Source: Centroscyllium fabricii (taxonomy: Eukaryota). From it: a DNA stretch of 64,000 nucleotides. The position numbers and the translations under genes were made by a program. Below the pieces are notes generated by a model that was given only the letters and a program-made list of their open reading frames with translations, was not told the DNA's origin and did no database searches. Location of the stretch: assembly GCA_051313645.2 (NCBI GenBank), contig JBNRSN020000008.1, forward strand, positions 191,456,001 through 191,520,000. The letters are read 5' to 3'. Shown here piece by piece: positions 216 to 61,660 of the stretch (positions are counted from its first letter, which is position 1; the number at the start of each line of letters is the position of its first letter).

Positions 216-384
216 CAACAGTCGAACCTTAGCCCAGCAGGAGTCTGTGTTCTCAGGAGAGATGGGGTGAAAATTGGTGTAAATAAATCATGCAACAATG
301 GAAGGCGTTGCATACCAAATTAAGGCTTCCCAACACCCACTCGTCTTAGTCGAGAAACCCAGTTGGAACCGCCATGCTTTATGG

Positions 385-639
385 CAGGGGTCCCCAACCT
401 TTTTTGGACCGCGGACCATTTTGGGCTTGTCAATTTTTTCCACGGACCGGGGGGGGGGGGGGGGGGGTTGCTGGCGGAGTTTTTTTGAATGACTGGGGGG
501 TGGGGGGGGGGGGGGGGTGTCTTCCGTCTGTGCCTCGTTGAATGTCTTCCGTCGGCGAATGATCTGCGCATGCGCCGAGGCGCAGACCCTTCCGCGGCCC
601 GGTAAAAATGTCCCGCGGACCGGCGGTTGGGGACCGCTG
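385..639. mobile_element. hAT (Charlie-like) MITE
   Basis: TIRs CAGGGGTCCCCAACC...GGTTGGGGACCGCTG. Perfect 8-bp TSD CTTTATGG at 377-384 and 640-647; 8-bp TSDs are diagnostic of hAT. Confidence 0.9.
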
Positions 640-1221
640 CTTTATGGAGACAAACTGAGGTCTTTCAGGGCCAAAGGAGGCCATTCGCTCACTCAGCCAT
701 CGAGTCACGATTACCCATTTCAGTGCAGCTCCATTCAGCCCTTAGTACATCCAAAGCCATTCCACCTCCAGTTATCTTGGCAGCAGATGGTATACAAAGT
801 TAAAAGCAAAAAAATGCTGGTGCGATTCAGAGTAAAGCAACATGGAGGAACTTCGCATTGATTTTAAGTTTCACCTCCTTGGAATTCAAGATGTTTGGTT
901 TTTGGCATCCCCGTTACTGACAGCTGTTTGATCACTCCGAGAATTGATTAATTGCCGATGGCAGTGCTGCTGGTTTCTGGGAAACTTCACCTGCAGAGGT
1001 AACATCCATGTTTACCTCATGGGCCATAATTCTGAGCCAAGGTTCAGTCGAATCAAAAATTTGAACCAAGGATCACTTTTCTACAGTAGGTATTCTTGAA
1101 ACTGGATCAGCAGCTTTCTATGCCAGCTTAACCCAGTAGCACTCTTTACGTCAGATCGCAAGGTTGTCGCATCAAGGCCCGTACCTGGATATGAGCTCAA
1201 TCTAAACGAGCACCTGTACTT

Positions 1222-27249: not shown

Positions 27250-27657
27250 CAGGTTGAGCACCGTTAATCCGGACACAGTTTGTCCGGCAACTTCAAACGT
27301 CCAGCACGAATCTGGCCGACTGGTGCGCGCATGCGCAAAATGGCCGCCGCGCTTGGCTGCGCATGCCCAGGCCTCTCCCCGACTGGTCTGCGCATGAGCA
27401 AAATGGCCACCGCGCTTGGCTGCGCATGCCCAGGTCTCTCCCCGACTGGTCTGTGCAGGCGCAAAATGGCCGCCGCGCCTGGCTGCGCATGCCCGGGCCT
27501 CCCCGATTGGTCTGCACATGCGCAATATGGCCGCCACGCTTGGCTGCGCATGCTCGGGCCTCTCGGCGAGTGCATGCGCAGACCATTCAATAATTTTGCA
27601 GTGGCCATTTTGAATGCTCTGCGCATGCGTTCGCCGAACTTCAATCATTCGGCTTTT
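27250..27657. mobile_element. pogo/Tigger-like MITE, right end deleted, inserted in Gypsy pol
   Basis: TA|CAGGTTGAGCACCGTTAATCCGG TIR and four internal repeats of about 63 bp; same family as 47125, 50313 and 61123. Confidence 0.85.
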
Positions 27658-28560
27658 TCCATCAGATGCTGGAAAGCCTGGGCATCATTCTTCAAGCCGA
27701 ACAGCATTCTAAGGAACTCAAAGAGGCCCAACGGGGTGCTGACTGCGGTCTTCTGGACAGCTTGTGGGTGCACTGGAACCTGATGGCAGCCCCGGACAAG
27801 GTCGACCTTGGAGAAAATGGTATTGCCTGCCAAATGGGCAGAGAAATCTTGGATATGGGGGATCGGGTAACGATCCGGTGTGGTGGCATCGTTCAGACGA
27901 CGGTGGTCACCCCAGGGCCGCCAGCTGCTGCCAGGTTTCGGGACGATGTGGAGCTGCGAGGACCAGGCACTATTCGACCAGCGAATAATCCCCAGCCGCT
28001 CCATCGTCGCAAACTCCGCCTTCGCGACTGCCATCTTGCCGGGTTCGAGGTGTCGAGCCCGCGGGGGGCCGCTGGTGGAGATGTGGTGTTCCACTCCATG
28101 TTTGGCGGATGAGGAGGAGAAAGTGGGCTGTGTAAGGCCGGGGAATTCACCCAGGAGGTGAGCAAAATCATCGGGGGTTGGCAACGCACAGGAGACCGTG
28201 TGTGCTGTCGTGTTACTATGAACACGGCAGTGAATTAAATATTGTCGCTTTGAACAACCGCAGATTCCGGACGTCAACCAGTAGGCTGTTGGCGCATAGA
28301 AAATCCGCACCGAGGAGGGACTGGGAAACCTTAGCCGCGACGAAATCCCAGTGGAAGCGCTGGCCACCGAAACACACTTCAACCCGCCGCCTGCCGAAGG
28401 TCTGGATCGTACCGCCATTGGCCACTTCGAGGGTGTGTCCGCGGTGCCCTGCCTGGATGTCGAGGGTGGACGCGGGCAGAATGCTGCACTGCGCACCGGT
28501 GTCGCCAGAAACCGTCGGTCCGAAAGGGAGTCAGTTATAAAAAGTAGCTTTCGTGCACAG
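27658..28560 (-). pseudogene. Gypsy protease and N-terminal RT remnant
   Basis: DTGAQCSILP (frameshifted aspartic protease), HRRLNDATTPDRYPIPHIQDF, IFSKVDLVRG.HQVPV, KTAVSTPLGLFEFLRMLFGLKN; ends before YxDD. Confidence 0.92.
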
Positions 28561-37633: not shown

Positions 37634-38361
37634 GGACGGCACGGTGGCATAGTGGTTAGCACTGTTGCCTCACAGCACCGGGGGCCCGGGTTCAAATCCA
37701 GCCTCGGGTGACTATCTGTGTAGAGTTTGCACATTCTCCCACCCAGTGTCTGCGTGGGTTTCCTCCGGGTGCTCCGGTTTCCTCCCACAGTCCAAAGATG
37801 TGCGGGTTAGGTTGATTGGCCATGATAACTTGACCCTTAGTGTTAGGGGGATTAAATATGTGGGGTTACGGGGGTAGGGTGGGATATGTGTCGGTGCAGG
37901 CTCGATGGGCCAAAATGGCCTCTATCTGCACTGTAAACATAGAAACATAGAAACCAGGAGCAGGAGTAGGCCATTCGGCCCTTCGAGCCTGCTCCGCCAT
38001 TCAATGAGATCATGGCTGACCATCCAAACCCAGCACCCCGCCCCTGCCCCCTCCCCATATCCCTCGATCCCTATCGAGCCTGCACCGACACATACCCCAC
38101 CCTATCCCCGTAACCCCACATATTCAATCCCCCTAACACTAAGGGCCAATTTATCCTGGCCAATCAACCTAACCCGCACATCTTTGGACTGTGGGAGGAA
38201 ACCGGAGCACCCGGAGAAAACCCACGCAGACACGGGGAGAATGTGCAAACTCCACACAGATAGCACCCGAGGCTGGACCTGAACCCGGGTCTCCAGTGCT
38301 GTGAGGCAACAGTGCTAACCACTGTGCCACCGTGCCGCCCTGTAGGGATTCTATGATTCTA
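37634..38361 (+). mobile_element. HE1-like V-SINE, short-tail form, with its tail split by a second SINE
   Basis: Body at 37634-37935; the tail GGGATTCTATGATTCT resumes at about 38345. Confidence 0.88.
37937..38339 (-). mobile_element. HE1-like V-SINE, long-tail form, nested antisense
   Basis: Full-length reverse copy with CTGTA on both sides (37931-37935 and 38340-38344). Confidence 0.9.
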
Positions 38362-38363
38362 TA

Positions 38364-38763
38364 GGGGTGGCACGGTGGCATAGTGGTTAGCACTGTTGCC
38401 TCACAGCACTGGAGACCCGGGATCAAATCCAGCCTCAGGTACTATCTGTGTGGAGTTTGCACATTCTCCCTATGTCTGCGTGGGTTTCCTCCGGGTGCTC
38501 CGGTTTCCTCCCACAGTCCAAAGATGTGCGGGTTAGGTTGATTGGCCATGATAAGTTGACCCTTAGTGTTAGGGGGATTGAATATGTGCGGTTACGGAGA
38601 TAGGGTGGGATATGTGTCGGTGCAGGCTCGATAGGGATCGAGGGATATGGGGAGAGGGCAGGGGCGGGGTGCTGGGTTTGGATGATCAGCCATGATCTCA
38701 TTGAATGGCAGAGCAGGCTCGAAGGGCTGAATGGCCTACTCCTGCTCCTATCTTCTATGTTCT
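38364..38763 (+). mobile_element. HE1-like V-SINE, long-tail form
   Basis: Full head, V-domain and tail. Confidence 0.92.
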
Positions 38764-47124: not shown

Positions 47125-47489
47125 CAGGTTGAGCACCGGTAATCCGCTAACTTAAGTCGCCCGGAACGAATCCGGCCGACTGGTCTACGCATGCGCAAAA
47201 TGGCCGCCACGCTTGGCTGCGCATGCCCGGACCTCCCCGAACGATTGACGCTTCGGCGAGCGCATGCGCAGACCATTCAAAATGCTTCGCGGTGGCCATT
47301 TTGAATGGTTCTGAACGATTGATGCTTCGGCGACCGCATGCGCAGACCATTCTAAATGGCCGCTGGCCTTCGCGGCGGACATTTTGAATGGTCTGCGCAT
47401 GCGCTCGCCGAAGCTTCAATCGTTCGGAGTTTTCACTTGTCCGGCACCGGCCAGGTCCCGCCCGTGCCGGATTAACGGTGTCGGACCTG
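47125..47489. mobile_element. pogo/Tigger-like MITE
   Basis: CAGGTTGAGCACCGGTAATCCG...CGGATTAACGGTGTCGGACCTG|TA; the left flank is TG. Confidence 0.85.
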
Positions 47490-47964
47490 TACAACGATTC
47501 AGTCTGACCTGGTGACATATGGCAGTAACAGCGACAATGGCTACTTGTCACACTGACAATGTGAGATTATTAATTATTATTACATATGAAGTTCAATGAA
47601 CATTTAATGTATTAAGTATAACTAGTTTTGCTTTTGATGGGGAGGCAGTTTTTTTTGCGCTAGAAACACAAGTTTCAGTTAAATAAGAGTGATAAATGGA
47701 CGTGTTAAGACAACAGGGACTATAGTACACAAGGCTGTCATTATAGGAACCTCAAATACACAATCAGAGTTTCTACTACATTATCCATCAGCAGCCTGCA
47801 GAGAAACCCTTGCAGCAGGAGAACATAATCTAATTTATTACAAATTAGAAATGTTTAAAACTCGATTAAAATTCCTGTTGAAACATCAGTGCATCAGTGA
47901 ATGACATGACCAGTCGGTTTTATAAACAAGCTAACTTCAACTCCAGTTAAACAGTTTGTTAATA

Positions 47965-48127
47965 CAGGTCCGACACCGTTACTCTGGCACCGTCGGGACC
48001 AGGCCGGTGGAGTGAAAAATCCGAATGACTGAAGCTTCGGCGAGCGCATGCACAGACCATTCAAATTGGCTGCCGCGCATGCGCAAACCATTCAAAACAG
48101 CCGCCACGCACACCGGTGTCGGACCTG
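47965..48127. mobile_element. Mini pogo/Tigger-like MITE, or left part of a composite element ending at 48969
   Basis: TA|CAGGTCCGACACCG...CGGTGTCGGACCTG, a perfect 14-bp TIR pair. Confidence 0.75.
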
Positions 48128-48807
48128 CACGTTGGTATTTACTCAACGTGTTGCCGACTACTGTACCAGCAAAATTCTGAGTGGAAGTGGAAGTTGGTTG
48201 GGGTAGTTCTTGCCCGTGTGGGATTAAGTGGCGTCTACATCCAAGTACTCATGTGCCTCTAGATTGTTCTGCATGTTGAAGAGTTTGGTTGGTTTAATAT
48301 ACAAAATAAGTAATTAATTTGCTTGAATTTGAATCCTGAACAATATGGTTTGTAAATCCGGGGCTACAGTATCGATGTTGCATTGTGCTGCACATCCCAC
48401 TGAAATGACAAACTGCCTCATGCTGCTTTGCATATTCAGTAGTACAATTAGTTATTGCAACACAGTAATTAGTTACGTTATCTTGCACAAAGGTAGTTTT
48501 AAAGACGGTTTGTCAGCATGTCCAGAATGTTGTTCAAGATGTGACCATTTGACCTTTATTCACATTCCCGTTTAATGTAGATATTGCTTTTGGATTGCCT
48601 AAACATTTGTATTTGTTTTGTGAAAGCCCACAACTGAAATTATAAGACTAGGTCTATTTATAATTTTTTTAAAGATAGTAACCTGAACAATACGAAGTAG
48701 TGAAAGGTCAAATTTAACTTCTTTCTTTAACTTTTTACAGAAATTGTGGACTTCCTGCATGAGCAAATAATTCCACAACTGGAAGCACTGCTACGGAAAG
48801 AAAAGGT

Positions 48808-48969
48808 CCACCAATCGGGGAGAGGCCCGGGCATGCGCAGCCAATCAGAGGCGCGGTGGCCATTTTGAATGGGATGCGCATGCGCAGACCAGTCGGGGAG
48901 AGGCCCAGATCATGCAGGACAACTGAAGTTTCCGGATTAACGGTGTCCGGATTAACGGTGCCGAACCTG
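48808..48969. mobile_element. pogo/Tigger-like MITE terminal fragment
   Basis: Ends CCGGATTAACGGTGCCGAACCTG; reverse complement of the start of the 27250 copy. Confidence 0.75.
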
Positions 48970-50312: not shown

Positions 50313-50781
50313 CAGGTTGAAGTTCGTTAATCTGGCACCCGAAAAACTGGCAACTTCGAACGTCCGGCAATAATTTCCCCGACTGCCCTGCGCATGCGCA
50401 AAATGGCCACCGCGATCGATGCTTCGCCGAATGATCTGCGCATGCGCCGCCAAACGGCGAGCACATGCGCAGATCATTCACAATGGCCGAGCCAATCCCG
50501 AGCCGAGCCTGGCCGCTGCGAGCCTCTCCGAGCCTGGCGGCTGCGAGCCTCCCCAAGCCTGGCCGCTGCGAGCCTCCCCGAGCCTGCGCGCGGCGAGCCT
50601 CCCCAAGCCTGGCCTCCCCGATCAGCGCATGCGCAGACCACTCAAAATGGCCGCCGGCCTTTCGCGACGGCCATTTTGTATGGTCTGCGCATGCGCTCAC
50701 CGAAACTTCAATCGTTCGGGATTTTCACTTGTCCGGTACGGGCCTGGTCCCACCCGTGTCGGATTAACGAACTTCAACCTG
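50313..50781. mobile_element. pogo/Tigger-like MITE
   Basis: Perfect 20-bp TIRs CAGGTTGAAGTTCGTTAATC with TA on both sides; internal CGAGCCT repeats. Confidence 0.92.
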
Positions 50782-57180: not shown

Positions 57181-57973
57181 CAGGTTGAACACCGTTATAC
57201 CGGCACGGGCGGGACCAGGCCCACCCCAGTATAGCGAAAAAAACAGAAGAACGAAACCGTCCAGCGCGCATGTGCGCACCATTCAAAATGGCCACGCGCA
57301 TGTGCCGCCAAACAAACAGGCAAACTGATTGTAGGAGTCGAGGATGCCCCCGGTGCAACATCAGATTCCAGAGAAATTGATTCTGCAATTGCCCATTTGT
57401 TCCACAGGTATTTCAAATCAGATACTCCTTCCTGCTCAATTCACGGGCAATTTAATCAGAACAATGTTGGTTCCATGAACTTTTGAGTTGGACTGGATTG
57501 TATTGAAAAATAGAAGAGAGATTTCATGATAGCTCTGTTAACTGTGGTGGTGCAGTTGGAGATTTGTCAGGTTACTTCCTGGACGCTTGTGTGCGTGAGG
57601 ATTTTTTTTTCGGGGGGGGGGGTTGAAATTTCTATTCTGCTTTTTGCAACTCGAGAGAGAGTGACGAAAACTCGTGACTGAGTTCCACTTTAAAATGGTT
57701 GACGCAGCAGATTATTGTAAACATTTTTTATTAGCAGCAGGGAAGTGGTGAGGCCAAATCGGCGACAAATGGGCAGCGTTGTGCTGACGAGAGGGGAATG
57801 GGCAGTGAGTAGTGAAACACTCCCTGAATGAGGAGGCAAAGGTCAGTCCAGCCGTTCGGCGGCGCATGCGCAGATCATTCGCCGAAGCATCAATCGCGGC
57901 GGCCATTTTGTGCATGCGCAGGGCAGTCGGGGCAATTTATGCCGGACGACTGAAGTTGCCGGTCTTCAACCTG
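57181..57973. mobile_element. pogo/Tigger-like element with about 540 bp of non-family internal sequence
   Basis: TA|CAGGTTGAACACCG...CTTCAACCTG|TA; the two ends correspond to the two different ends of the 50313 and 61123 copies. Confidence 0.7.
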
Positions 57974-60449: not shown

Positions 60450-61660
60450 GTGCACAAAAATCATTAAAAGTAGCATCACAAGTTAGTGGGGCCGTAAAAA
60501 GTGCACACAAAGCACGGAGATTAATTTCTAGAGGAATTCAAAAGCAGAAATGTTACGTTGAACTTGCACAGAACCTTGGTTGGACCACACTTGGAGAAGT
60601 GCGCACAGCTCTGGTCTCCGTATCACGAGAACCATACAGAAGCACTGGAGAAAAGATTTACAAGGATGATACCAAAACTGAGAGGTTATAATTACCAAGA
60701 AAAATTGAACAAGCTGGGGCCCATTTCTCTTGCAAAGAGAAAGCTGAGGGGTGACCCGATAAAGGGCTTTAAAATTATTAAAGGGTTTGATGGAGTGGAC
60801 ACAAGGGCAGAGGTTCCCAGTTCTGGGGGTGAACAAAACTAGCAACTATAAATATAAGGCAGTTGCTAATAATTCCAATAGGGAATTCAGGAGAAGCTTC
60901 TTTACTCAGAGGTTGGTTAGAATGTGGAACTCGCCACCACAGGGAGTAAAAAGAAAATAACTTGCATTTATATAGCGCCTTTCACAACCTCAGGACGTCC
61001 CAAAGTACTTTATAGCCAATGAAGAACTCTTGAAGTCTAGTCATTGTTGCAATATATTTCAGGTGAACAGCAGAGAGGCATTTAAGGGGAAACTAGCCAA
61101 GTGCATGAGGGAGAAATGAATACAGGTTGAACACCGTTAATCCGTTACCCGAAAAACCAACAGCATGCGCAAAATGACCGCCACGATTGCTGCTTCGGCG
61201 ACTGATCTGCGCATGCGCCGAACGGTGAGTGCATGCGCAGATCATTCACAATGGCCCTCCGAGCCCAGCCTCTCCGAGCCCCGCCCAACCTCTCCGAGCA
61301 CAGCCCCGCCTCTCCGAGCACAGCCCCGCCTCTCCGAGCCCAACCCCTCCGGGCCTCTCCGAGCCTCCCCGAACGACAAGCACATGTGCAGACCACTCAA
61401 AATGTCCGCCGGCCTTTTGCGGCGGCCATTTTGAGTGGTCTGCGCATGCGCTCGCCGAAACTTCAATCGTTCGGGATTTTCACTTTCCCGGCACGGGCCT
61501 GGTCCTGCCCGTGCCGGATTAACGGTGCCCAACCTGTAGCAGGATATGTTGATGGGGTGAGAGGAAGTAAAGGGAGTGTGAGGGGGCTTTTGAGAAGCTT
61601 AAACACTGGCAGAGACCTGTTGGGCAGAATGGCCTGTTTCTGTGCTGTAAATTCTGTGTA
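60450..61660 (+). mobile_element. CR1 LINE 3' fragment interrupted by a SINE/L2 tail (about 60950-61050, minus) and a MITE
   Basis: TLVGPHLEKCAQLWSP..RFTRMIPKLRGYNYQEKL..RKLRGD. Confidence 0.8.
61123..61536. mobile_element. pogo/Tigger-like MITE
   Basis: TA|CAGGTTGAACACCGTTAATCCG...CGGATTAACGGTGCCCAACCTG|TA; the CR1 tail resumes afterwards. Confidence 0.9.

Follow-up and report, generated by a model that had tools for sequence, protein, structure and literature searches.

A 26-bp NRF1-motif module common to hAT and pogo/Tigger MITEs of Centroscyllium fabricii, probably passed from one clan to the other by template switching

Several described systems come close to an exchange of sequence between unrelated transposable elements. 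The nearest are the Pack-TIRs of animals (Tan et al. 2021, PMC8277862), for which the available part of the report describes TIR elements with filler DNA, breakpoints with microhomology (1-36 bp, median 2), template switching and spread by transposition, each with an apparent counterpart in the case presented here. In MER6, a MITE with a SINE V domain (Luchetti et al. 2019, PMC6887750), the accessible text likewise describes how a MITE burst multiplied a module that stems from another, unrelated transposable element. Brassicaceae MITEs amplify E2F motifs, and in vivo binding of E2F to such elements has been demonstrated, according to the sections available of PMC5950925 and PMC7329337; the likeness is that of a host-factor motif multiplied by MITEs, and the available portion of the second paper proposes binding as a possible aid to transposition, leaning on a paper that is listed as retracted. 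Finally, the Ozma-derived MITEs (Yang et al. 2013, PMC3814204) are alike, in the part of the source at hand, in having a MITE structure set at short microhomologies. A literature search, judged from listings and with subscription journals mostly outside its coverage, found no report of NRF1 motifs common to MITE superfamilies, and a frog Harbinger MITE for which PMC12676858 names an NRF motif was discarded as a parallel, the work that this paper cites for it being on an ER-membrane protein of the same abbreviation.

The window, that is the whole stretch of 64,000 nucleotides of C. fabricii DNA analysed here, contains near its start a 255-bp hAT MITE without coding capacity, the frames across it being GC-rich and of low complexity (Table 1). 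The 8-bp target site duplication predicted for this element is indeed exact. Duplications of this length with at most one mismatch flank 27/31 hAT copies, and they are perfect in 139/164 copies of a sample kept for at most two mismatches. Across the 31 copies, position 4 of the duplication is T in 26 and position 5 is A in 28, and the 8-bp duplications with this central TA preference, which is Charlie-type, are the ground for the hAT assignment. The termini of human MER1/Charlie3 and MER46/Tigger4 may be similar to those of the elements here. No autonomous hAT partner with the same termini was found among 50 of 150 listed PF05699 loci (2,497 candidates); one candidate (L198) proved to be another module-less MITE next to an unrelated transposase.

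Table 1. Coordinates of the hAT and pogo/Tigger elements in the window and of the parts that bear on the origin of the module.
Feature	Position	Strand	Remark
Target site duplication (8 bp) flanking the hAT MITE, left	377..384	.	same letters as 640-647
Non-autonomous hAT MITE, 255 bp, subfamily A1a (one module)	385..639	+	15-bp terminal inverted repeats, one mismatch
Native hAT internal repeat	519..553	+	full unit of about 25 bp (519-543) and head of a second unit (544-553); occurs too in module-less sisters
12-bp native inverted repeat boxing the module	526..587	.	arms 526-537/576-587; weak predicted hairpin
26-mer of the hAT MITE	552..577	+	0 mismatches
Left-junction microhomology, 2 bp, native hAT repeat/pogo donor	552..553	+	continues the native repeat in 9/13 occurrences (7 P copies without the module)
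22-bp tract foreign to the hAT lineage	554..575	+	identical to left subterminal sequence of pogo MITEs
Palindromic NRF1 consensus core, 10 bp	566..575	.	equals the consensus in the available part of PMC10810270
Right-junction microhomology, up to 4 bp, native hAT right flank/one pogo subfamily	576..579	+	
Target site duplication (8 bp) flanking the hAT MITE, right	640..647	.	same letters as 377-384
pogo/Tigger-clan MITE, TA-flanked	50313..50781	+	module 50424-50449 (+, 1 mismatch), one arm of a strong hairpin
pogo/Tigger-clan MITE, TA-flanked, with foreign filler	57181..57973	-	exact module 57860-57885 (-, 0 mismatches)
pogo/Tigger-clan MITE, TA-flanked	61123..61536	+	module 61195-61220 (+, 1 mismatch)

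The original prediction placed one 26-mer in the hAT MITE and three more in pogo/Tigger-like MITEs. A search of the window that allowed up to 3 mismatches returned exactly these four matches, while shuffled versions of the window returned none (0/100 shuffles), and each of the three copies outside the hAT element lies in a TA-flanked element of the pogo/Tigger clan. More specifically, the tract common to the hAT element and one pogo subfamily is longer than predicted, 28 bp (552-579). In the 7.2-Gb assembly the exact 26-mer occurs 13,903 times, so that the two clans together hold at least that many copies of one NRF1-containing word, and the reversed 26-mer, used as a control, is found nowhere in the genome. 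The three upstream bases typical of the hAT flank precede 1,837 of these occurrences, tandem units counted. Among the first 30 sites on one contig, pogo-type MITEs account for 27 and the hAT family for 3, with a third carrier family at none of the 30. Terminus matches number 105,743 for the pogo clan, both ends counted, and 9,746 for hAT right ends, with 2,439 matches to the left end of the window element itself. Contigs running across both junctions are present in public runs of 2 studies under 2 organism labels, one of which is possibly the source of the assembly itself, and they therefore date nothing. Elsewhere in the window, a head-to-head pair of near-identical LINE-like 3' ends occupies 37944-38761, with 397-bp arms that are 94% complementary and separated by 24 bases.

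The module was present in all of the 31 best BLAST matches in which both hAT ends were found, a set picked by similarity. We therefore turn to samples drawn by their termini, whether or not the module was there. Of 97 right ends, 44 carry the module or a derivative of it (34 in full, 3 with its last 18 bp, 7 in diverged form) and 53 lack it; the left-end sample gave 19/29 elements with the module or a derivative and 10/29 without. The 26-mer, tested as a trait of the hAT family, is thus carried by a large part of it, and a one-off insertion or conversion is ruled out by the many module-bearing hAT copies with different target duplications. Indeed, target duplications differ from copy to copy across the clan, as multicopy spread by transposition leaves them. 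Nor are the two carriers one element type, since they differ in their ends and in the duplication made at the target. Two unrelated MITE clans have the 26-mer as a fixed component.

The pogo/Tigger MITEs end in inverted repeats and are flanked by a TA target duplication. From 6/30 DDE_1 (PF03184) transposase loci we recovered TA-flanked elements about 2.4-2.8 kb long, and by eye their ends resemble the right end of the pogo MITEs, which makes them relatives and at most a candidate mobilising partner; the TA duplications and the resemblance to this transposase family are the basis of the pogo assignment. In a sample picked by terminus, 19/29 elements carry the module, mostly 113 bases from the left TA, and subfamilies with different termini hold it at that one offset. 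The remaining elements comprise 3/29 with NRF1 cores but without the module and 7/29 without any core, 3 of these 10 having been read from one end only, including 2 of the 7 core-less ones. The hairpin in which the pogo module takes part is strong (-27 kcal/mol; 0/200 shuffles equally good). No NRF1 core was found in full-length pogo transposase elements with related ends (0 in 4/4), suggesting that the pogo MITEs gained their cores after derivation from the autonomous element.

The window holds further pogo-clan MITEs with NRF1 cores and without the 26-mer, at 27250-27660 (cut off on its right side), 47125-47491, 47966-48130 and about 48830-48900, in which motifs that we take to be YY1-like are also present. 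A pogo MITE subfamily of about 740 bp (L047, L048) includes a piece that is presumably a lookalike of a SINE fragment, an echo of MER6. At another locus (L309:1330-2300) the left end of a pogo MITE is broken inside the NRF1 core and fused straight to the middle of a pogo transposase gene; once considered as a MITE end on a transposase, it is a truncated insertion instead. Several transposase frames are open, of 558 aa for pogo (various places of G000 C967) and of 858-871 aa for hAT (L155-L159), and therefore recently active or domesticated transposases may exist in the genome.

The junctions of the module in the hAT element can be read against seven module-less sisters from the right-end sample, class P. 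These copies have the left internal repeat of about 25 bp and the right flank as in module-bearing elements, the two being separated by other sequence of at least about 45 bp. As both flanks are thereby native, only the 22 bp at 554-575 are foreign to the hAT lineage. The 28-bp tract common to pogo is present in 7/8 A1a copies, and in comparisons of 26 module-less hAT copies with 57 pogo copies the longest common tract was 11-14 bp. Given a shared 11-bp core, the chance of at least 26 identical bases is about 2.5e-7, over 16 core comparisons. Two observations count against a capture by template switching: the four bases 576-579 begin the native right flank in just 2/6 scored P junctions, and the 26-mer by itself is a weak hairpin (5/200 shuffles equally good), so its first 6 bases were possibly templated locally. 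The native inverted repeat around the module is predicted to fold at -15.9 kcal/mol (8/200 shuffles equally good).

We consider a one-time template switch from pogo to hAT at microhomology, followed by passenger spread through hAT transposition, to be the best explanation and a probable one. During repair or replication, one hAT founder copy would have copied from a pogo MITE, guided by 2 bp of microhomology on the left and up to 4 bp on the right; the captured module would then have ridden hAT transposition to over a thousand places, and later hAT lineages would have multiplied the unit or swapped its flanks, the NRF1 core being kept. That the event was single, its direction, the template-switch route and the near-neutrality of the module for the element are points that we infer. 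The direction is indicated by the empty P sisters together with the fixed offset and native hairpin of the module in pogo, and the pogo clan is a plausible donor in view of its excess of terminus matches over hAT right ends. The original prediction had offered two readings, a cassette moved between superfamilies by repair-type capture or a selected host-factor-binding module. The former stands and, on the basis of the P sisters, gains a direction and breakpoints with microhomology; the latter was not borne out beyond weak pointers.

The hAT lineages that carry the module differ around it, and the core is retained in all derived subfamilies: the right flank is changed in A2, a 50-bp unit is expanded to 1-12 copies in A3, the unit is inverted and diverged in A4, and in B the left part is swapped for about 170 bp of other sequence. 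The A3 arrays (L284, L225, L281), with one NRF1 core in each 50-bp unit and up to 12 units in a 797-bp MITE, are a minisatellite born from the captured module. Class B (L068:1751-1897 and L091-L120; 493 candidates) is a young subfamily with an insert about 98% alike, and many of its copies show an internal inversion. Two mosaic MITEs (L253, L262) join a class Q left end to a module-bearing A3/A4 right part within intact target duplications, as expected if subfamily exchange preceded transposition. The B inversions, these mosaics and the replacement of about 170 bp in B show that the hAT clan is readily rearranged. Class Q itself (L215, L222, L252, L265, L285; about 950-1040 bp; L226 and L231 are related) is module-less and holds about 500 bp of GC-rich foreign sequence, which makes the hAT clan, too, look like a Pack-type carrier; palindromic motifs in it are presumably CRE-like. 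At L208/L209, two copies of the hAT clan adjoin: the one with the module lies next to the cut-off left part of the one without it, or is nested there.

A tree of hAT ends was computed from 104 rows and 118 columns, leaving out deletion classes and the S copy, taking no more than 12 copies each of B, C and A1a, and setting the root by hand on a module-less R copy. On the tree so rooted, class P adjoins A1a. The module state needs 5 changes, as against 25.8 for shuffled labels, with many forks open; 3 of the 5 are forced by well-supported branches, two of the five are the mosaic copies, and a single change sufficed in 0/200 bootstrap trees. Groups C and Q, which lack the module, are placed weakly among the ends that have it. 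The case for a single origin is thus made by the shared junctions, and the tree does not resolve one gain.

The same capture may have been followed by selection at the level of the element, with NRF1 opening chromatin or aiding the copying of master copies in the germline, so that both clans keep and multiply the site. We regard this as unlikely, though it deserves weighing. The core is kept while its flanks are replaced (B, A4) or mutated (A3), and A3, with its 1-12 units per copy, is the largest class among right ends (20/73 complete copies); tandem expansion is seen, however, in native hAT repeats as well, and module-less lineages have been amplified too (53/97 hAT ends, 7/29 pogo elements without a core). 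NRF1 binding is methylation-sensitive, and bound, unmethylated copies, if such they are, would therefore be expected to show lower CpG decay in the core. In hAT, decay was 15/209 (7.2%) in the core and 48/870 (5.5%) elsewhere (p=0.41), in a small sample whose tandem units are not independent and from which one CpG covered by a subfamily variant was omitted; in pogo it was 15/116 (12.9%) and 53/265 (20%) (p=0.11), also in a small sample, so that core decay is not significantly lower. Among 29 pogo left ends, shared non-CpG variants were found in 0/26 module columns as against 29/89 neighbouring columns (p=2e-4), and with CpG changes included in 4/26 as against 35/89 (p=0.03), for rows that had to match the module at 20 of 26 positions and for columns that are not independent. 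This low variation may come from arm-to-arm correction in the strong pogo hairpin, from the match filter and from shared ancestry.

Core retention, tandem expansion and low pogo variation weakly indicate selection on the module. In its strongest form, such selection would make NRF1 sites a selfish accessory of vertebrate MITEs, in which host-factor binding helps a master copy to evade silencing or to get copied, a proposal that we hold to be doubtful. Equally doubtful is its extension, by which template switching hands the site across superfamilies and the elements then multiply it, up to 12 per copy. The module would rather be a largely neutral passenger of the hAT element, as 53/97 right and 10/29 left ends do without it and CpG decay shows no significant drop.

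A different kind of origin, which we judge quite improbable, would have both clans independently taking a snippet from one host promoter, or converging by fold-back around an NRF1 core. Foreign GC-rich fillers do occur in both clans, the 26-mer can self-fold (5/200 shuffles equally good), and the promoter-like insert of about 170 bp in type B directly abuts the last 18 bp of the module, as though B were the ancestral form from a host promoter. That form was rejected: in a limited search (40 of 493 candidates scored) the insert gave 12 matches, all of them MITE copies, with no host copy found by a filter that could miss one about one time in three. B ends are moreover nearest A1b and apart from the module-less P group, so B looks derived; and identity over 22 bp in both letters and spacing has a chance of about 4.5e-5 even given the core.

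The reverse transfer, from hAT to pogo, would suit the core-less full-length pogo transposase elements (4/4), by which the pogo MITEs too acquired their core from elsewhere, but it is the least probable of all and hardly to be entertained, as the pogo module, with several related cores around it, is part of a native hairpin and common to subfamilies with diverged termini, while the hAT module breaks up a native repeat and there are sister copies without it.

In conclusion, template switching from pogo to hAT, with later spread by transposition, would make this a well-preserved exchange of sequence across two cut-and-paste superfamilies, in which one genome still has the donor, the empty recipient and the junctions. 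It means that MITEs grouped by their internal sequence may be misclassified, and that host-factor motifs can be seeded in large numbers by one capture; if the site helps spread, this can be tested directly on the matched sister families with and without the module.

Set beside the known systems, the case is a modest variant of a known capture process, with another transposon as donor. Breakpoint microhomology (2 bp, and up to 4 bp, both within the span given for Pack-TIRs) and multicopy spread by transposition are found here as in Pack-TIRs, while the captured DNA, host and non-transposon in those elements, comes here from another MITE clan. As far as the available part of that report (PMC8277862) allows the comparison, the filler here differs in being 22-28 bp, in coming from another DNA-transposon superfamily and not from host DNA, and in its presence in over a thousand copies with later tandem expansion. 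MER6 has a SINE domain in a mariner-derived MITE (PMC6887750, from the accessible text); the present case concerns a very short stretch, both superfamilies involved are of the cut-and-paste kind and reside in one genome, and the empty sisters and the junctions survive. Ozma MITEs, in the portion of PMC3814204 available, arose by internal deletions within one family at 6-8 bp and without a foreign donor. Compared with what the available sections tell of the plant E2F MITEs, the putative NRF1 site is known here from sequence alone, and can be traced from one superfamily to the other.
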